Source: a virus (lineage: Duplodnaviria > Heunggongvirae > Uroviricota > Caudoviricetes). Taken from it: a stretch of DNA of 38,873 bases. The DNA lies in IMG/VR virus record IMGVR_UViG_2734482567_000007; one strand, given 5' to 3'. The translations under genes were made by a program, and so were the position numbers. Below the pieces are notes generated by a model that was not told the origin of the DNA, ran no database searches, and worked only from the letters and a program-made list of their open reading frames with translations. Positions 21,758 through 38,873 of this stretch are shown here, in pieces. The stretch's first letter is position 1. Each line of letters opens with the position of its first letter.

Positions 21758-22036
21758 ATGACAACCATTTTTATTAAACCTGCGCCGGGATGCCTGATCC
21801 GCGATCCCGACACGATGACTCCGCTCTCTCAGGACGGGGAAGAGAAACCCTTCACTCCGTTCTGGTGCCGCCGTCTTAATGATGGCGACGTCATTGTGGT
21901 GGATAAAACGGCGGAGCCTGCCCCGGCTGCCACAACTGCTAATACCGGCGCGGCGGCAAAACCAGCGGGAGCGGTAGCAGAAAAAACTGCGGCGGTGGCT
22001 GAAAAAACCGCAGCATCAGATAAGGGGACGTCCTGA
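21758..22036 (+). CDS. Small structural-region protein
   Basis: 92 aa with Ala/Pro/Thr-rich tail; precedes sheath gene. Confidence 0.45.
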   Translation: MTTIFIKPAPGCLIRDPDTMTPLSQDGEEKPFTPFWCRRLNDGDVIVVDKTAEPAPAATTANTGAAAKPAGAVAEKTAAVAEKTAASDKGTS

Positions 22037-23538
22037 TGATTAACTTTGATTATATCGGCGATAACAATCGCATTCCGCTGGTACAGATTGAAATCAATAA
22101 TTCAATGGCCGTGACCGGCACTCCACCACAGCGTCAGGCGGTACTGTTGTTTGGTCAGGCTGCAATGAAAGACACTACCATTCAGGGGCGCGGTCAGCTT
22201 GATGTACCAGTACGTATTACCCGAGCTTCACAAGCAAGAGAACTCTGGGGGCGAGGTTCCATGATTGCACTGATGGTAGAGGAATTTATCGCCATTAACC
22301 CTGACACAGAGTTATATGCCATTGCACAGGGGGCTGGAACAGGTCAGTCCAGGGCATGCGTGATGAATATCATTGGAACAGCATTGGCAGACGGGGTGTT
22401 AAGTGTTTACATCGGCGGTCGCCGTTACCTCCTGCCCGTCAGTAAGGGGAAAAAAGGTAAAGAGCTTGTGGAAGAGCTGGCTAAGGTCATTAACGCTGAC
22501 ACTGATGCGCCATTCACTGCTATCGCAGCTGAAGTCAGTGGTGATAATGCTGAAGGACTTAAAGGCAGCATGGGGGTTAACGCCCGCTTTATCGGTGAAT
22601 GCTCAGCTCATGATTTACGGGTGAACTATTATGACGGTGAAACTACACCGGCCGGTCTTACGCTGGAGCTCGTCGCGCCAACACAGAAGGCAACAAACCC
22701 CGATATCACCCGTAGCGTCTCAGGGATGGGGAATCGTCAGTACAACTACATCGTCATGCCCTATAAGGATGCGGCAAATCTCAAAATTCTGGCGGATGAA
22801 CTGCTGAAACGCTGGGGACCGGTAAAAATGTCGGACGGTATGGTCTGGATGGCGCATACCGGCACCTTCGGTACGGCAACCAGTTTTGGTGAATCCCGTA
22901 ATGACTTCCTGTTTACCTGCACTTCTATTCCTAAAGCACCAGAGCCGGATTATGTCTGGGCTGCCTCCATTTGTGCGGTCTGTGCGCCCTCCCTGTCAAC
23001 GGATCCGGCCCGACCATTACAGACACTGGCGCTGCCTGCCCGTATGGCACCTGAAGCACCGGATCGTCTGACGCGGGAAGAGCGAAACAGCCTGCTTTAT
23101 ACCGGCATGTCCACGGTGACCGTCGCGGCCGCGGATGTGGTGCAGATTGAACGTCAGGTGACGATGTACCGTCAGAATGCATACGGCGAAATCGATCCCA
23201 GCTATCTGGATGTGGAAACCATCTACACCCTGTCATATCTGCGTTATTCCCTGCGCACCTTTATCACGCAGCGTTTTCCGCGCCATAAACTGGCTGATGA
23301 CGGGACGCCCGTTCGTGCCGGTCAGAATATCGTGACACCGGAGATCATGAAACTTCAGTTAATTTCGCTGGGGGAAGAATGGGTGGATCTGGGACTGGTC
23401 GAAAATCTGGACACCTTTAAAAAGAATCTGCTCGTGGAGCGCAACACAAAAGACCGTAACCGTCTGGATGTGATGTGTACACCGGATCTGGTTAACCAGT
23501 TCCGCTTCATGGCCGCGCAGATCCGTTTCATTTTGTGA
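22036..23538 (+). CDS. Contractile tail sheath protein
   Basis: 500 aa; followed immediately by tube gene; size typical of Mu L sheath. Confidence 0.8.
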   Translation: MINFDYIGDNNRIPLVQIEINNSMAVTGTPPQRQAVLLFGQAAMKDTTIQGRGQLDVPVRITRASQARELWGRGSMIALMVEEFIAINPDTELYAIAQGAGTGQSRACVMNIIGTALADGVLSVYIGGRRYLLPVSKGKKGKELVEELAKVINADTDAPFTAIAAEVSGDNAEGLKGSMGVNARFIGECSAHDLRVNYYDGETTPAGLTLELVAPTQKATNPDITRSVSGMGNRQYNYIVMPYKDAANLKILADELLKRWGPVKMSDGMVWMAHTGTFGTATSFGESRNDFLFTCTSIPKAPEPDYVWAASICAVCAPSLSTDPARPLQTLALPARMAPEAPDRLTREERNSLLYTGMSTVTVAAADVVQIERQVTMYRQNAYGEIDPSYLDVETIYTLSYLRYSLRTFITQRFPRHKLADDGTPVRAGQNIVTPEIMKLQLISLGEEWVDLGLVENLDTFKKNLLVERNTKDRNRLDVMCTPDLVNQFRFMAAQIRFIL

Positions 23539-32153: not shown

Positions 32154-32403
32154 NNNNNNNNNNNNNNNNNNNNNNNNNNNNNNNNNNNNNNNNNNNNNNN
32201 NNNNNNNNNNNNNNNNNNNNNNNNNNNNNNNNNNNNNNNNNNNNNNNNNNNNNNNNNNNNNNNNNNNNNNNNNNNNNNNNNNNNNNNNNNNNNNNNNNNN
32301 NNNNNNNNNNNNNNNNNNNNNNNNNNNNNNNNNNNNNNNNNNNNNNNNNNNNNNNNNNNNNNNNNNNNNNNNNNNNNNNNNNNNNNNNNNNNNNNNNNNN
32401 NNN
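32154..32403. other. Assembly gap (250 N)
   Basis: Uninterrupted run of N. Confidence 0.99.
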
Positions 32404-32427
32404 GGCTGTCTATAGCGCGGCGATTTT

Positions 32428-32493
32428 TTTGATACCGATTTGCATTTCATTTGATACCGCTGAAAAACGCCGATACGCAACTTATTTGATACT
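32428..32493 (+). repeat. Right-end transposase-binding-type repeats (TTTGATACCG at 32428-32437 and 32450-32459, TTTGATACT at 32485-32493)
   Basis: Same motif as at left end, immediately downstream of mom stop on the minus strand and abutting the N gap. Confidence 0.6.
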
Positions 32494-32538
32494 AAATCGG
32501 CGCTTTTCTTTTGAGTTTTAGAATGAGTTTTTAAGCGT

Positions 32539-33276
32539 TCATTCACTCTCTTTCAAACCAGTTTTAACTGTTTGTGGTTTTGGGTAAGGCTGGACTTTGA
32601 ATAGCTTTGTGTTAAGGCGTTTTCTGGCTCTCTTGTCCAGAAACCGGATGTAACGAAACTGACGGAATTTATGAACACTGGCTCTGTCGATATTAGCCCG
32701 CAGATGTTCACCTCGCTGTCCTCCTCGTTTGATTGCATTCTTGCAAATCTCGTGATACCACTCGCCATCAAGTTCATAGAATGTTGTTTCATGACTGCCT
32801 ACATAATCAAAATTGCTTGCCTGGTACACGACACCAAGACAGCCACAACGCTCATCTGCAAACGACTGAACCCACTGCACCTGCGGATAAAGTTGTCTGA
32901 TTAGTTTGAGCGCGTAACTGATTGCCCTTGATTCGGAGTTTCTCGGCATACAGTCATGCAGCCATAACCGGTTAAGCTCCATATATTCGCGGTTCTGCGT
33001 GCCAGTTACGACGCGTGCACCATTGTTTGGATTAAGGGCATAACCCCATTGCATTACGCCAACCAGCTCCCGTTCTGAAAATATGCCCAGATGAAGGTAG
33101 GAATTATTTACGAAACGATGGCTGTAATGTTTATTGACGACGACCAGCCGGGCCAGCCAGCAACTTATTGTCTCAACCCGTAACTCACGGGAGCCATAAC
33201 CGACGATATTGTCGTTATAGTGAATAAGTTCAGGCGTGCTGATGATACGGGATGTAACTTGCTTTCTGTTCCCCAC
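32539..33276 (-). CDS. mom: Mom-like DNA modification protein; start inferred as GTG at 33276 inside 3' end of com
   Basis: Last gene before the phage end, immediately downstream of and overlapping a Com-like zinc-finger gene; mom frame has no ATG near com stop; GTG at 33276 preceded by AAGGA (9-nt spacing). Confidence 0.55.
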
Positions 33277-33430
33277 GACAGGATTTCCTTGTGTATGTGG
33301 GGTGCTCTGTGGCGCTCTGAGATGTGATTTGATTGAGGGTTTTACAGCGCGGACATTTAACTTCCAGATAACTGAAGCTGGCTCGTGCCAGTAGCTTGTT
33401 ACAATGTCGGCACCGTATGTTTCGATACAT
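33230..33430 (-). CDS. com: Com-like zinc-finger translational activator of mom
   Basis: 66 aa from ATG 33430 (GGAGG upstream); CRHCNKLL...CPRCK zinc-finger resembling Mu Com; overlaps mom start. Confidence 0.7.
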
Positions 33431-33570
33431 GGCCGCATAACCTCCTGCTTTGTTGTTGATATCTTTATCACTCAATCGATCGACAAAAACGATCGATTTG
33501 ATTTATTTAATTGATACAACAAATAACACGAAATGTCATTAGCGAAAATTTATGAGTTTGATCACTAATT
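33431..33570 (-). promoter_or_regulatory. com-mom upstream regulatory region with clustered GATC sites
   Basis: GATC at 33478-33481 and 33491-33494, each within a CGATCG palindrome, and a third at 33560-33563, in an AT-rich region upstream of com. Confidence 0.45.
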
Positions 33571-33686
33571 TTAAACGGTGCTGTAACGCATAAGTGCTGA
33601 ATGATTGTACATTTGAATACCGCAAAGCAAACAAATCAACTAATTTATAGAAGTCAATTGGTTAATTGCCAGCGTAAGAGGCTGCT

Positions 33687-33980
33687 ATGGACAATCATGT
33701 AACGACGAGAAATCGAAAAATGATTGAAAATGCGGAAATCTATAATGATTATTTTTCCGATTATTCAGATGCCTGCAAATACAGTTCGAGTGCGGGAGAG
33801 TTCATATGCTTCAACTTTTTTATTAAATCTTATGTTTTTCCTCCACAGCAAGAAGATGGAGGTGTGCCACCTCCTGAAATCACTTTGCACCGTATAGCCT
33901 CCGTCTCAATGATGGAGCAACAGGCTAATGAGCTGTATAGCATTCTGGGAACGATTCTACAAAAGCGTGAATCGGACTAA
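33687..33980 (+). CDS. Hypothetical AT-rich protein, divergent from com-mom
   Basis: 97 aa; RBS TAAGAGG 5 nt before ATG; markedly AT-rich relative to phage core. Confidence 0.45.
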   Translation: MDNHVTTRNRKMIENAEIYNDYFSDYSDACKYSSSAGEFICFNFFIKSYVFPPQQEDGGVPPPEITLHRIASVSMMEQQANELYSILGTILQKRESD

Positions 33981-34062
33981 TGATACCGGTTCATTTGCCT
34001 GCCCGGATGGGGAAGCAGGATTGACTGCTCCATAAGCAGCTATATTTCTGAATACGAAATAC

Positions 34063-34142
34063 TATCCAGCGATTACATATGGCTGGATAGCGGCAAAGAT
34101 GTTTTCATTAGTGTCAAACCGGCAGAGGACACCACCGGTTTG
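34063..34142. other. Two palindromic elements between convergent genes (TATCCAGC/GCTGGATA and CAAACCGG/CCGGTTTG)
   Basis: Perfect 8-bp inverted repeats at 34063-34089 and 34115-34142; the second ends 5 bp before the stop of the 84-aa gene. Confidence 0.35.
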
Positions 34143-34147
34143 TATTG

Positions 34148-34402
34148 TTACATCATGGTACTGTCAGTTCCGGGCTGAGCCGGGTCTGGTTGCTCTGGCT
34201 GCGCGTCGGTTTTCGGCTCATTATCAGCATCACTGGCCGCAACTGCTGGCCCAATAAGTTTTGCCAGCACTTCATCAACGTAAGTGTCGATTTGTGCCTC
34301 AAAATCCTTGCGGACCTGCGCTTTCAGCAACTTATTTACTTCACCGGAATACAGTGCCTGTTTTACCAGGTCTTCAGTGACGGTGCCTTTAATTTCTGGC
34401 AT
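34148..34402 (-). CDS. Hypothetical acidic protein
   Basis: 84 aa; strong RBS AGGAGG 6 nt before ATG; Asp/Glu/Pro-rich C-terminus. Confidence 0.5.
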   Translation of the reverse strand: MPEIKGTVTEDLVKQALYSGEVNKLLKAQVRKDFEAQIDTYVDEVLAKLIGPAVAASDADNEPKTDAQPEQPDPAQPGTDSTMM

Positions 34403-34437
34403 GTATATCCTCCTTATGCGGGAATAAAGCCCTGCAA

Positions 34438-34620
34438 TCAGGGCTGGGTCGGGTCTTTTGGGAGCGGAGTTACCTGCGCTGTTTTACTGAGTTTTTCAGC
34501 TGCTGCGTCCTCAATTTTGCGGCGAACATAATTTCTGATGGCCTTATAACCACCACTCACCAGATATAACGCACATACTGCCGTGCAGAAATACAATAAA
34601 ATAAGCTGTAAAAATGTCAT
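34438..34620 (-). CDS. 60-aa single-transmembrane peptide (candidate small membrane toxin or lysis/exclusion peptide)
   Basis: ATG at 34620 preceded by GGGAGGG; N-terminal hydrophobic helix MTFLQLILLYFCTAVCALYLVSGGY followed by basic/charged tail. Confidence 0.45.
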   Translation of the reverse strand: MTFLQLILLYFCTAVCALYLVSGGYKAIRNYVRRKIEDAAAEKLSKTAQVTPLPKDPTQP

Positions 34621-34635
34621 TATCCCTCCCAATTA

Positions 34636-34758
34636 TTGACATGGTGTTGACACCGGTAATATCTGTTAGGTAAAAAGGTGCACTGCATTTTTTGCTTTGG
34701 ATATAACGATCTTTTTGCCGCCGGTTTCTTGTTTTCCCTTACCGGCGGCATTTTTTTA
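34636..34758 (+). ncRNA. Candidate small RNA transcription unit antisense to the leader of the 60-aa peptide gene
   Basis: TTGACA (34636-34641), 15-bp spacer, TAATAT (34657-34662), then intrinsic terminator GCCGCCGGT...ACCGGCGGC + TTTTTTT (34717-34757); no plus-strand protein gene to serve. Confidence 0.35.
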
Positions 34759-34764
34759 TCCTGC

Positions 34765-36819
34765 TTACGCGTTATTCACTTCCACCACGATACTGTCAAT
34801 CAGTACCGGGTAAGTCGCATTTTTAGTGATATCGGTCACGCGCAACTTGTCTGCCGTAAACGTGCCGACCGGAGACTGCGACAGCATGAATGGTGTCCCG
34901 TCCTTACCATCAATGACCGGCGTCACCTCAATACTGTTGTTACCGGCAAAACGGAAGCCCAGCGTATGCCATTCGTTATTAAATGCGCCGAATGACCCCA
35001 GCTTCGTGTTCTGCGCCGTGTTTCCTTTGTGATACATCACGTTAAGGTCTGTGGCATCGCTCTGTACGTAGAACGATGCCAGCAGGTTATGACCGGCATT
35101 TCCTTCCAGAGTAACCCCTTGCGGCAGGGCAGAAACCGGCCAGTACAGCGCCAGTGCGTACTGATTAGCCGTAAGCGCGCCATCGAGTTTAAAACGACAA
35201 CTGACAAGACCACCTTTACCCAGCAGGTCCGCACCATTACCAGCATCATGCTCAAGGTACCAGGGGGCTCTTCCTGTTTCCTTGGTCAGTTTCATTGCCT
35301 TACCCCCGCTGGCTCCGGCATCATCCACGATTTGAGCCTTGCCACCTCCGGCAGCCCAACCCTGTGGTGTCAACCGTCCTTCAGACTCAGATGCCCGGTA
35401 AGCAAATAGCGTACTCATCGTCGTGGTGTCTGCGGGTGGCGTGGACGGTTTTGATGGTGTATCAGGTGACGGCTTCTCATCCGGTGGTGTCACGGTCTGC
35501 CCACGCATCAGTTCAGCCGTGCGCCCTGCATGGAGCATAATAGCTGAGGCCAGACGGTCTGAAATGACGCCCCTGCGTGCCCATGAGCTGAAATGGCTGT
35601 CACGCTGTGTCGAAACAAAACTGCCCTGGGTTCGGGATGCTGCACCGTAATACCCGACAGCCACAATATCCGGGTCTTCCGCCGGAGCATTCGTTGGCGT
35701 GCTCTGTCCATTCTCATCCGTCAGGAACGGTACAAAGAAAATTTTCTGTGCTTCCTTGCCTTTGTAGCCACCGTATACTGCCTCATATTTATCGGTGCCA
35801 GCGTTTTTCCAGTAATACGTGGTATCACCGCAAATCCACGGCACCGTGGTGGCATTTCCACTCACGCACTGCGCAGCAAGCGGAGCCAGGTCAGTTCTGA
35901 ACTGCTGAACCATGGCCGTGAATAAACTATTATGCTGCTGGCTTCCTGAGGCAAGGTCTGCCTCTCCCTGCATCCAGACCACAGCCAGAAGTTTGTTTTT
36001 CGGGTTTTTCGCCAGCGCGACTTTGGTGCGGCTTACCAGGTCCTGATACAGAGGTTTACCGGCCCCCCAGCGTGAAGAATCAGCGGAAGCACCGCTGGCC
36101 TCACTGAATGAGCCGTCGGCTCCAGTGGTGAATGCTGACCCGCCACGACAACAGGGCACCAGAAGTATCCCGGCATTCTGTGGGATATAGGGAAGCAGTT
36201 TTTTGGCAATATGCAACCCCTGACCGACAGTCCCGTACTGGCCTTTTGCCAGATCAGCTTTCGGGTGGTTTATCCCGCTCATATCCTGAACATCATGCAG
36301 GCAGTGGTCTGCCGGAATGATGTCGTTGTATGTACACGACGTACCGTTGGGCGTTACCGTACTGCGGCGTGCCAGTTGCTTAATGCGTGGGTCCGGGCGG
36401 TCAAACGAATCCGGTAACGGCAGCCCCTCGCCGTAGGCCATGCCATTTGACTGACCCGCGAGAATGACAACAAAGTAATATTCCGGCTCTGAACTGCTGC
36501 CATTCGTGCTACCGGAAGGCCCGGCGTTATCCGGTGCATTCCAGTCGGAGGGCGTGAGCGTTCCGGCCACGTCAGATGTGATTGGAATGATGCCAGTCAC
36601 GCCTGAACTGGTGATTTCTGCACTGGGATTACCGGATACCGGCATTACCCATAATGGCTCTTTCGTGCTGAAGCGGATCACGCAGTCTGCGAAGGTGATC
36701 CCCCCTTTATTACCCGAAGGGCGGAAAGGGCTTTCAATAAATGCCACCGTGCCACCGGCAACCTTGACTGAAAACTCTCCGGGCATGGCGGAGAGCATTT
36801 TCCACTTGGAGTCTGACAT
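34765..36819 (-). CDS. SGNH/sialate-O-acetylesterase-like carbohydrate esterase with C-terminal lectin-like domain (NanS-p-like)
   Basis: 684 aa; YYFVVILAGQSNGMAYGEG esterase motif; Pro/Ser/Thr-rich linker; C-terminal beta-rich domain; inserted between gin and com. Confidence 0.5.
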   Translation of the reverse strand: MSDSKWKMLSAMPGEFSVKVAGGTVAFIESPFRPSGNKGGITFADCVIRFSTKEPLWVMPVSGNPSAEITSSGVTGIIPITSDVAGTLTPSDWNAPDNAGPSGSTNGSSSEPEYYFVVILAGQSNGMAYGEGLPLPDSFDRPDPRIKQLARRSTVTPNGTSCTYNDIIPADHCLHDVQDMSGINHPKADLAKGQYGTVGQGLHIAKKLLPYIPQNAGILLVPCCRGGSAFTTGADGSFSEASGASADSSRWGAGKPLYQDLVSRTKVALAKNPKNKLLAVVWMQGEADLASGSQQHNSLFTAMVQQFRTDLAPLAAQCVSGNATTVPWICGDTTYYWKNAGTDKYEAVYGGYKGKEAQKIFFVPFLTDENGQSTPTNAPAEDPDIVAVGYYGAASRTQGSFVSTQRDSHFSSWARRGVISDRLASAIMLHAGRTAELMRGQTVTPPDEKPSPDTPSKPSTPPADTTTMSTLFAYRASESEGRLTPQGWAAGGGKAQIVDDAGASGGKAMKLTKETGRAPWYLEHDAGNGADLLGKGGLVSCRFKLDGALTANQYALALYWPVSALPQGVTLEGNAGHNLLASFYVQSDATDLNVMYHKGNTAQNTKLGSFGAFNNEWHTLGFRFAGNNSIEVTPVIDGKDGTPFMLSQSPVGTFTADKLRVTDITKNATYPVLIDSIVVEVNNA

Positions 36820-36904
36820 CGTCTTTTCTGCCTGTTTCTGAATTAAACAGAGTCAGAATAGCGACCGCTGAAAAATATGTGTTTTGCGGAAATTCAAAAA
36901 AGCG

Positions 36905-37477
36905 TCACGGTACTTTTGGTGACGGAGCTGGTGAGGCAGGAAAATAACGATAAAGGGTGGAAAGGCCAATATCAAATATCAGTGCGATTTGTTTACGGGA
37001 CTCGCCATTAGCCAGCAAACGGGCGATTTGCTCCCGCTCTTTCTCTGTCAGTTTCTGAGGTCTGCCGCCATGACGCCCCTGAGCACGGGCAGCAGCAAGA
37101 CCCGCGCGTGTACGTTCAATAATGAGTTCCCGCTCCATTTCCGCCAGCGCGCCCATTATATGGAAAAAGAAACGTCCCATGGGAGTGGATGTATCAATAT
37201 TGTCCGTAATGCTGCGGAAGTTAACGCCGCGTTGCCGGAGTTCTTCTGTTAAAAGGACAAGGTGCTGCATACTGCGTCCAAGGCGATCCAGTTTCCAGAC
37301 CAGCAGGGTATCCCCTGGCCGGAGTCGCTTTAATGCGCGTTTAAGTCCGGGACGCTCCCTTGTCTTACCGCTTATTCTGTCTTCGAAAAACAGCTCACAT
37401 CCTGCACATTCCAGCGCATTTCTTTGTAGCGCCGTATTCTGGTCATTTGTTGACACCCTGATATACCCAATCAGCAT
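36905..37477 (-). CDS. gin: Gin/Hin/Pin/Cin-family serine DNA invertase
   Basis: 190 aa; near-identical N-terminus to Mu Gin (MLIGYIRVSTNDQNT...GDTLLVWKLDRLGRSM...GRFFFHIMGALAEMERELIIERT); adjacent to gix site. Confidence 0.9.
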   Translation of the reverse strand: MLIGYIRVSTNDQNTALQRNALECAGCELFFEDRISGKTRERPGLKRALKRLRPGDTLLVWKLDRLGRSMQHLVLLTEELRQRGVNFRSITDNIDTSTPMGRFFFHIMGALAEMERELIIERTRAGLAAARAQGRHGGRPQKLTEKEREQIARLLANGESRKQIALIFDIGLSTLYRYFPASPAPSPKVP

Positions 37478-37523
37478 ACGATTTCCTTATTATAAAAAGC
37501 CGGAATTGTCGCATGAGGAATAA

Positions 37524-37907
37524 AACAGAGTTAATCCTGGCTTTCCTGAAAACCTCGGTTTACGGGAAACGGTAAACAGGGCGGCGAATGCCCTGCCATC
37601 GGACGGCACCGCCGTTGCCGCGAACAGGCTGGCAAATGCCCACACAATTAATGGTGTTCCCTTTGACGGGACGCAGGATATCACTATCTCATCAGGAACA
37701 GTAACCGCCATAAGACTGGGGTCGGTGACCGCACATATGCCCGGAACATGGGAAAGCTGGGATCTGAATCTGGGGGGCGGCAATGTTCTTACCGGAATTA
37801 AAGTACAGGATGTCGGTAAGAATACGGCAGATAACGTCGGCGGCGTGTATTACCGGCCGTTGCAGTATCTGTTAAATGGAGCATGGGTGACGGCTGCAAG
37901 TATATAA
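37524..37907 (+). CDS. Alternative tail-fibre C-terminal cassette (no start codon; expressed only after inversion)
   Basis: Open frame from IR into variable region ending at 37907; shares ...NGVPFDGTQDI with the minus-strand cassette and then diverges. Confidence 0.55.
   Translation, partial: NRVNPGFPENLGLRETVNRAANALPSDGTAVAANRLANAHTINGVPFDGTQDITISSGTVTAIRLGSVTAHMPGTWESWDLNLGGGNVLTGIKVQDVGKNTADNVGGVYYRPLQYLLNGAWVTAASI
37543..37568. other. gix-type inversion crossover site (left)
   Basis: TTCCTGAAAACCTCGGTTTACGGGAA, matching the Mu gix/hix core AAAACCTCGGTTTAC with imperfect dyad symmetry; 65 bp from gin start. Confidence 0.7.
37555..37624 (+). repeat. Left inverted repeat of invertible segment
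   Basis: 70 bp with one mismatch to the reverse complement of 38804-38873; encodes the shared fibre segment ...RAANALPSDGTAVAAN... Confidence 0.8.
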
Positions 37908-37938
37908 TGATATTCAGAAGGCCTTCCGGCCTTCTTTA

Positions 37939-38460
37939 TTACTGTGGCTGCTCAGGCCATTTAATGGCGTTAAATTCAGCTTCTGTTTTAATGGCGGGTA
38001 GTTCCATTTTCTTCACCTGACTGATGTATGCCATCCATTGGGTAAGTGCTGCTCTGTCTTCATCGCTGATGGTGCCCAGTTGTAGCTCCGTTCTCCAGTC
38101 ATTAATTTTTTCATATGCCTGATTAAGATATGACTGGCGCATTGCTTCCAGTTTTCTTGCGTAGTTAACCGGAATACGGGAGATTATGCCATTATCAAAC
38201 TTCCAGTTTCCTGAAATATCCGTGCCTTCAGGGAGTTCATCGACCTCAACCACAGAAAACCCCGCAGGATACAGCGCCGAGGCGTCCTGTGATATTGAGC
38301 AGATAACGCCGCTGTCAGGTGTTATGCAAAGTTTATATTTTTTGGTGAATAATGGCAGGGATTCGTAGAAATCCTTACCATCTTCACTCTGGAAATACTG
38401 AACATTATTACCATATGGCATATTTTCAGGATAATAACGGGTTATATTTTTTAGTTCCAT
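37939..38460 (-). CDS. Tail-fibre assembly (chaperone) protein, U/Tfa family
   Basis: 173 aa; GGAGG RBS; immediately downstream of minus-strand fibre cassette; typical Tfa C-terminal region. Confidence 0.75.
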   Translation of the reverse strand: MELKNITRYYPENMPYGNNVQYFQSEDGKDFYESLPLFTKKYKLCITPDSGVICSISQDASALYPAGFSVVEVDELPEGTDISGNWKFDNGIISRIPVNYARKLEAMRQSYLNQAYEKINDWRTELQLGTISDEDRAALTQWMAYISQVKKMELPAIKTEAEFNAIKWPEQPQ

Positions 38461-38511
38461 AAAATCCTCCTGGAAATAAATCTGTTTTAAAATATATTAT
38501 TTACTGACTAT

Positions 38512-38873
38512 TTATAACTGAGATACCGTAATCCATGTACCTCCGACTAATTTTTGCAGGGGTCTGAATGCTATAAAATCGTTTGAAGCATCAACTTTAC
38601 TGTCAATCTGCAGGCCTGCCATAACATTACCGTACGCAGAGTAATATGCCCCACCGTACATTACCTGCCTGTTCTCTGCTCCCAGCCTGATATCCTGGAT
38701 ATATCGGGAATCCGCATCCTGCTGTGTTATACCAGAAGTGATGTTTATGTCCTGCGTCCCGTCAAAGGGAACCCCATTAATATTTCTTGGGGTGGCGAGT
38801 CTATTCGCGGCAACGGCGGTGCCGTCCGATGGCAGAGCATTCGCCGCCCTGTTTACCGTTTCCCGTAAACCGA
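38512..38873 (-). CDS. Tail-fibre variable C-terminal cassette (5' truncated at window edge / gix site)
   Basis: Open frame from window end to TAA at 38512-38514; begins with IR-encoded ...NRAANALPSDGTAVAAN then variable region; followed by assembly gene. Confidence 0.6.
   Translation of the reverse strand, partial: GLRETVNRAANALPSDGTAVAANRLATPRNINGVPFDGTQDINITSGITQQDADSRYIQDIRLGAENRQVMYGGAYYSAYGNVMAGLQIDSKVDASNDFIAFRPLQKLVGGTWITVSQL
38804..38873 (-). repeat. Right inverted repeat of invertible segment, ending in right gix half-site (38860-38873)
   Basis: Reverse complement matches 37555-37624; TTCCCGTAAACC + GA at the very end of the window is the right half and centre of a gix site. Confidence 0.8.

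Follow-up and report, generated by a model that had tools for sequence, protein, structure and literature searches.

Why should a phage built on the plan of Mu carry a 684-codon gene between gin and com, two genes that lie 94 bp apart in phage Mu itself? The question is raised by the virus record IMGVR_UViG_2734482567_000007, a stretch of 38,873 nucleotides that was analysed as a whole (hereafter the window), in which an uninterrupted open reading frame (ORF) of 684 amino acids (aa) plus stop codon occupies positions 34765..36819 of the minus strand. A reading of the letters alone, referred to here as the original prediction, had described the product as an SGNH/SASA-type protein with a Pro/Ser/Thr-rich linker and a beta-rich C-terminal domain, resembling the NanS-p-type sialate O-acetylesterases of lambdoid prophages and inserted into a Mu-like backbone. 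NanS-p enzymes are thought to help pathogenic Escherichia coli feed on the O-acetylated sialic acids of gut mucus, and they have been discussed almost solely as cargo of lambdoid Stx phages. We find that the same pair of enzyme and lectin-like domains also rides Mu-like prophages, including Sp18 of the O157:H7 strain Sakai, and that the lambdoid DUF1737 module is replaced in these proteins, at the domain boundary, by a beta domain of about 80 residues that has so far been seen only in Mu-like prophages.

The ORF is intact, and a coding sequence identical to it is annotated by RefSeq in complete E. coli genomes (WP_001284083.1, 'DUF6645 domain-containing protein'). Profile searches returned significant matches to Pfam SASA (PF03629; residues 117-312, E 1.5e-13) and DUF6645 (PF20350; residues 533-650, E 7.4e-68), and phrog_143 of the PHROGs collection covered residues 71-684 (E 1.7e-296). 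Among known structures, residues 110-428 matched Protein Data Bank (PDB) entry 3PT5, the 9-O-acetyl-N-acetylneuraminate esterase NanS/YjhS (E 1.8e-117), and residues 469-683 matched 6YP6, the crystallised C-terminal domain of NanS-p (E 7e-98). The protein can thus be laid out, along the minus strand, as an all-beta N-terminal domain (residues 1-~82; 36574..36819), a first linker rich in Gly, Ser, Thr and Pro (residues ~83-110; 36490..36573), the SGNH/SASA esterase domain (residues ~111-430; 35530..36489), a second, Pro/Ser/Thr-rich linker read in the sequence between the two PDB matches (residues ~431-468; 35416..35529), and a C-terminal lectin-like jelly-roll domain corresponding to DUF6645 (residues 469-684; 34768..35415). 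Both the linker and the beta-rich C-terminal domain of the original prediction were therefore recovered.

The motif on which the SGNH/SASA assignment had been based, LAGQSNGMAYGEG, falls at residues 120-132, and the protein contains the blocks GQSN (122-125, with Ser124), CCRGGS (223-228), WMQGE (282-286) and RDSH (406-409, with His409), which are NanS-type variants of the SGNH hydrolase blocks (PMC10462455). In an alignment of 122 homologues, 933W NanS-p included, G122, Q123, S124, G226, Q284, G285, E286, R406, S408 and H409 were invariant, and N125 was kept in all but one (121/122); the catalytic Ser/His pair, whose loss would have told against the original prediction, is accordingly present throughout. 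The proposed sugar site of the phi24B protein, made up of the aromatic residues Y510, Y515, Y540 and F611 (PMC10462455), aligns with Y554, Y559, Y584 and F654 here. The protein is 66% identical to 933W NanS-p, with which lambdoid type it shares the esterase domain, the lectin-like C-terminal domain and the Pro-rich linker between them. Chromosomal NanS of E. coli has the same catalytic domain with the same GQSN and R-x-S-H motifs but is a single-domain protein (the 3PT5 chain counts 337 residues, including any expression tag), lacking both an N-terminal module and a lectin-like C-terminal domain.

Experiments have shown NanS-p enzymes from prophages of enterohaemorrhagic E. coli to act on Neu5,9Ac2 and on the O-glycans of mucin (PMC8065619, PMC8319020). 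Taken with this activity, the homology to NanS and NanS-p and the conserved residues make the family assignment and the predicted esterase function well supported, and to judge from the sequence the gene very probably encodes a functional, prophage-borne sialate O-acetylesterase of the NanS-p family. The SGNH/SASA domain would use Ser124 and His409 to strip O-acetyl groups off sialic acids (for example, Neu5,9Ac2) on mucin glycans, and the lectin-like jelly roll probably keeps the enzyme on the glycan. No signal-peptide-like hydrophobic stretch was seen at the N terminus by inspection, no predictor having been used, a feature shared with lambdoid NanS-p; for this reason, phage lysis is probably the protein's only way out of the cell.

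That the gene is instead an inactive remnant or a tail-fibre paralogue is highly improbable in view of its intact frame, its invariant catalytic residues and the 599 member sequences that cluster at 90% identity with P0007, an identical protein. Searches of Pfam and PHROGs returned no tail-fibre homology, and an ordinary tail-fibre paralogue, an outcome for which the original prediction had allowed, was rejected on this ground.

Several observations nevertheless weigh against a functional sialate esterase. Esterase activity in the literature concerns lambdoid alleles only (PMC8065619), and block IV reads RDSH here versus the RSSH or RASH reported for Stx2a-phage NanS-p (PMC10462455), although this variant retains His409 and most of the 122 homologues have RDSH. 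With regard to expression timing, a weak 6-bp hairpin and a U6 tract lie 3' of the gin stop codon, and no convincing promoter was found upstream of the esterase gene, a scan for promoters and terminators having performed no better than on shuffled sequence; no Mu C-protein-type site was found there by eye. In addition, the substrate could be an O-acetylated bacterial glycan and not host sialic acid. Deacetylation of the O antigen or capsule (for example, of O-acetylated polysialic acid), which would aid adsorption or change the surface of the lysogen, has been raised as a possibility for NanS-p (PMC8065619), and esterase genes adjoin tail-fibre genes in related prophages. We consider such a role unlikely: enzymes shown to act on Neu5,9Ac2 and mucin share 84-93% identity with its catalytic and lectin domains, and an N terminus that looks, by inspection, unlike a signal peptide speaks against activity at the surface of the lysogen itself.

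The departure from the lambdoid enzymes lies at the N terminus. Full-length homologues fell into two architectures, one of ~647 aa consisting of DUF1737, SASA and DUF6645, which is that of lambdoid NanS-p and was confirmed for one member in a lambdoid prophage of strain M3 (L032), and one of ~680-691 aa without DUF1737, all of whose members with examined context reside in Mu-like prophages. Precomputed Pfam assignments place PF08410 (DUF1737) in the shorter group and not in the longer one, and DUF1737 gave no match to the full 684-aa protein (E up to 0.01) or to its residues 1-100 (E up to 10). At the DNA level, the window is 87% identical to the M3 lambdoid prophage from position 36487 to 34486, that is, from about residue 111 into the DUF1378 gene downstream, and homology to lambdoid nanS-p thus starts just past the first linker, at the start of the esterase domain. 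In place of DUF1737 there stands an unrelated beta domain of ~80 residues followed by the Gly/Ser-rich linker.

Protein identities follow the same boundary. Within the Mu type, the N-terminal domain (N-domain; residues 1-85) is 96-100% identical, or 84-85% in two proteins annotated as starting later, and the esterase and C-terminal domains are 80-99% and 80-97% identical, respectively. Compared with DUF1737-bearing lambdoid NanS-p, the esterase domain is 84-92% and the C-terminal domain 81-93% identical, bearing out the likeness originally proposed, whereas N-terminal identity is only 12-18%, as between unrelated sequences. Mu-type and lambdoid proteins are therefore equally close in their catalytic and lectin parts and not at the N terminus, from which we infer that the former recombine with a common pool and that the N-module stays with the phage lineage.

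Relatives of the N-domain are few. Pfam gave nothing for residues 1-100 at E values as high as 10, and an exhaustive HMMER search with residues 1-110 against 1.84 billion cluster representatives returned a single distant relative, 30% identical and from Salmonella enterica, although full-length relatives may sit under lambdoid cluster representatives in such a search; word-indexed protein searches gave fragments only and evidently miss full-length proteins. The gene for the Salmonella relative likewise follows gin in a Mu-like prophage, and its product goes on into an esterase domain. A version 59-60% identical occurs in the Mu-like phage inserted in the Stx phages LC727881 and LC727895, another is ECs_4993 of Sakai prophage Sp18, and a further one belongs to a 784-aa esterase encoded directly after a tail-fibre assembly gene in an IMG/VR prophage. 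N-domain homologues of 30-60% identity were thus confined, in these searches, to Mu-like prophages, with E. coli, Salmonella and one other host as their carriers. The Salmonella N-domain is also matched by phrog_4772 (E 1e-5), a group of ~79-aa phage proteins of unknown function.

An AlphaFold2 model of the N-domain, computed from a six-sequence alignment, has five beta strands, with a predicted local distance difference test score (pLDDT) of 76-90 for residues 1-70 and 63 for residues 71-80; its linker is disordered (below 50 over residues 83-100). A single-sequence model of the whole protein was unusable (mean pLDDT 33). Fold searches with the N-domain yielded only generic cupin-like matches and small uncharacterised phage proteins, and neither these nor Pfam revealed similarity to known structural or decoration proteins. 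A hidden Markov model of the domain detected no paralogue in all reading frames of the window, Mu and the related loci, and a contig scan with the N-domain alignment gave no match.

What could such a domain be for? The phi24B NanS-p, gp84, is reported in a 2026 preprint to be a capsid-decorating protein in which DUF1737 hexamers plug the hexon centres and the esterase part is processed off (bioRxiv 10.64898/2026.04.10.717836). Of the two roles offered in the original prediction, lysogenic conversion and virion association, the second thereby gains a precedent. The hexon-binding DUF1737 is absent from the 684-aa protein; however, the phage-type-specific replacement of exactly this module suggests that the Mu-type N-domain could anchor to Mu-like particles. 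We tentatively put forward, as one possible role, that it is a phage-type-specific anchor tethering the esterase and lectin to the capsid or to the baseplate/tail-fibre region of the Mu-like virion, in which case the particles would bind or modify sialylated mucus or cell-surface glycans. Such an anchor would be consistent with the precise placement of the swap at the start of the esterase domain, with an N-domain that keeps to the Mu-like lineage as the remainder of the protein exchanges sequence with the lambdoid pool, with the restriction of its homologues to Mu-like prophages, and with the several prophages that have an esterase gene, of varying N terminus, immediately after their tail-fibre and invertase module. 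It fits less well with the lack of similarity to known structural or decoration proteins, the lack of a paralogue in the phage and the divergence between the window phage and the Mu-like phage JNE, whose structural proteins are 90-98% identical but whose N-domains, part of a diverged block of gin plus cassette, are only 61% identical. In addition, the related esterase of locus L037 has ~40 N-terminal residues and no folded module, and DUF1737-type NanS-p also occurs in P2-like phages, so DUF1737 is not bound to one capsid type.

Modular tailspike and tail-fibre enzymes carry exchangeable N-terminal particle-binding adaptors as a general principle. The Mu-type proteins resemble them in having a variable N-module on a horizontally exchanged enzymatic and binding part, with tail-fibre genes adjacent in related prophages; they differ in that no adaptor homology and no sign of a trimeric spike architecture was found, and their association with particles is putative.

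The enzyme may instead be soluble throughout, a 'public good' that lysis releases to feed surviving lysogens on O-acetylated sialic acids, with an N-domain that serves folding or oligomerisation; we put this at a little short of an even chance. NanS-p gives lysogens growth on Neu5,9Ac2 (PMC8065619), the best fold matches of the N-domain are small cupin-like barrels, which are often dimerisation modules (for example, the matches to CENP-C and Mif2p), and the gene lies outside the structural operons, after gin. A purely soluble enzyme nonetheless leaves unexplained why the N-module is exchanged by phage type exactly at a domain boundary, and why it is held at 96-100% identity while the catalytic part varies. 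The clean swap, read together with the phi24B result, leads to the testable idea that the N-terminal modules of the family may be phage-specific particle anchors. Its broadest form, in which NanS-p enzymes in general would be particle-displayed, mucus-interacting enzymes with anchors swapped per phage type (DUF1737 in lambdoid and P2-like phages, the N-domain described here in Mu-like phages and others elsewhere), is a conjecture that we hold about as loosely as the anchor itself. If the anchor idea is true, it bears on the interaction of temperate phages with mucus; if the N-domain has no anchor role, the genes form an ordinary accessory (moron) cassette.

The esterase gene does not stand alone. 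It is followed on the minus strand by a gene for a small DUF1378 protein with a hydrophobic N-terminal segment (34438..34632, RefSeq start 34620; Pfam PF07125, E 1.2e-31) and by one for a small acidic DUF826 protein (34148..34402; PF05696, E 6.4e-16), and the order nanS-p, DUF1378, DUF826 is that of lambdoid late regions. In the lambdoid prophage of M3 it is embedded between the Q antiterminator gene and those for holin, lysozyme and Rz, with nanS-p encoding DUF1737, SASA and DUF6645; in 933W, nanS-p is likewise followed by a DUF1378 homologue, and DUF826 and DUF1378 genes between nanS-p and S were noted by Pascal et al. (PMC10462455). Whereas lambdoid nanS-p lies downstream of Q/stx and upstream of the holin gene, the present gene lies between gin and com of a transposable Mu-like myovirus and is therefore not under the lambdoid pR'/Q late promoter. 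Just 3' of the DUF826 stop codon, two strong RNA hairpins can form on the minus strand (34040..34145; folding energy -50 kcal/mol, z -4.06, with none of 200 shuffles as stable). They probably mark the 3' end of the cassette transcript, which suggests that the three genes end as one transcription unit. Comparison of the cassette proteins with PADLOC and NCBIfam gave nothing useful.

The same cassette recurs as a divergent allele. ECs_4993 of Sp18, labelled merely a hypothetical protein in the Sakai record, and its counterpart in the Mu-like phage of LC727881/LC727895 have the same three-module architecture, an N-domain ~60% identical to that of the window, a position after gin and DUF1378 and DUF826 neighbours. 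This ECs_4993/JNE type is a diverged allele of the whole block of gin plus cassette (61-78% protein identity) in an otherwise 90-98% identical phage. The gin-cassette arrangement was found in HH35, M3, CI5, the JNE Mu-like phage and Sakai Sp18, and hence, in the comparison of gin-com intervals that the original prediction had called for, the window is not unique.

The boundaries of the inserted stretch could be placed by comparison with Mu. The gin-type DNA invertase gene, the upstream neighbour of the esterase gene, lies at 36905..37477 (Pfam Resolvase and HTH_7), com at 33230..33430 (Pfam Zn_ribbon_Com; RefSeq) and mom at 32539..33276 (Pfam Mom, E 1.6e-77; RefSeq), all on the minus strand. 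The gin-com distance is ~3.47 kb here versus 94 bp in Mu; the insertion proposed in the original prediction is thus present, but its net size is ~3.4 kb and not 3.2 kb. The cluster of GATC sites that lies behind gin in Mu is located, in the window, immediately upstream of com (33474..33530, minus strand; alignment with Mu, the JNE phage and CI5), which marks the right-hand junction, and the inserted stretch therefore spans ~36904 to ~33530. The C-terminal tail of gin departs from that of Mu after the helix-turn-helix, reading ...LYRYFPASPAPSPKVP here and ...LYKKHPAKRAHIENDDRIN in Mu (window 36905-36950 versus L028 4100-4174), which places the left junction of the block inside the final codons of gin.

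The inserted stretch also holds, on the plus strand and convergent with the cassette, an orphan ORF of 97 aa in low-GC DNA (33687..33980, RefSeq start 33720; GC 0.37-0.39) that has no match in Pfam, PHROGs, NCBIfam or PADLOC. The same slot is occupied by a 64-aa zinc-ribbon-like ORF in the JNE phage, by ECs_4996 in Sp18 and by another small ORF in CI5, and appears to be a variable cargo slot.

The Mu-like nature of the backbone, as originally proposed, is borne out by annotated gpT head subunit, gp46, gp47 and gp48 genes, by the invertible tail-fibre segment and the gin, com and mom genes that occupy the right end, and by 92% DNA identity to the Mu-like phage of LC727895. Two ORFs labelled A and B by their position are 94-99% identical to their counterparts in the JNE Mu-like phage. 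The tail sheath ORF, likewise named by position (22036-23538), is only 71% identical to that of the JNE phage versus 94-98% for neighbouring structural proteins, a local mosaic replacement.

The carrier of the cassette is an Sp18-like Mu-type prophage, whose right end it occupies. The 4.2-kb region was present at a coverage of at least 80% in 25 of 5426 complete E. coli genomes. DNA of the window-type N-domain was found in 28 genomes, with a 69% match in 4 more, and related Mu-like head genes in 234, mostly Sp18-like. The prophages disrupt a diguanylate cyclase gene, flgL, yfcU and sorM, and such insertion at differing host sites fits transposition. A literature search, with several subscription papers outside its reach, found nothing linking nanS-p with Mu-like phages, Sp18 or ECs4993. 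What is new here is an architectural and contextual variant of NanS-p: the family is known, and the variant is present but unremarked in reference genomes. Since Mu-type copies have no DUF1737 and lie away from stx, counts of nanS-p per strain that rely on DUF1737 or on adjacency to stx miss copies.

A complete Mu-like phage of the same lineage (LC727881.1 35677-75644; L033) lies inside Stx-converting phages, with an annotated 4-bp target duplication at its flanks, and one composite prophage record thus carries a Mu-type NanS-p homologue in a Stx phage.

The right-hand part of the window has an assembly peculiarity. The tail-fibre gene S is interrupted by 250 consecutive N (32154-32403), to the right of which (32404-38873) come ~7 nt of host DNA and then attR, mom, com, the cassette, gin and the G segment; the window breaks off within a copy of the ~140-bp inverted repeat of the G segment. 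Everything to the right of the N run has the opposite orientation to the one expected from the tail genes of the window and from complete genomes, which has the look of a scaffolding join, or of a misorientation at the repeats of the invertible segment, and not of biology; the order from gin to com is, despite the inversion, the same as in complete genomes.

NanS-like esterases of 705-786 aa also follow tail-fibre or invertase genes directly in other enterobacterial prophages (L035 8983-11337, L037 8956-11073 and L038 6714-9074). Their three N termini comprise an N-domain homologue, a stub of ~40 residues and a third type, one of the esterases has an extra C-terminal extension of ~100 residues, and homologous ORFs of 124-130 aa follow the esterase gene in L035 and L037. 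An E. coli M3 locus (L002 9454-9760) is without gin, of which only a 28-residue remnant matches, and has the esterase gene directly after the tail-fibre segment; gin is not present in L035 either. In P2-like (Peduoviridae) E. coli phages, a NanS-p homologue lies just after the lysis genes (L030 1-1464 and L029 1-1251), both copies being cut by the record end, and a DUF1737-like N terminus was read in L030 only. Finally, in some related Mu-like prophages, namely L003 (4820-5872), L027 (9420-10472) and L035 (12785-13837), a C5 DNA cytosine methyltransferase gene stands in place of mom, preceded and overlapped by com, which suggests Com-type translational control over a different DNA-modification enzyme.

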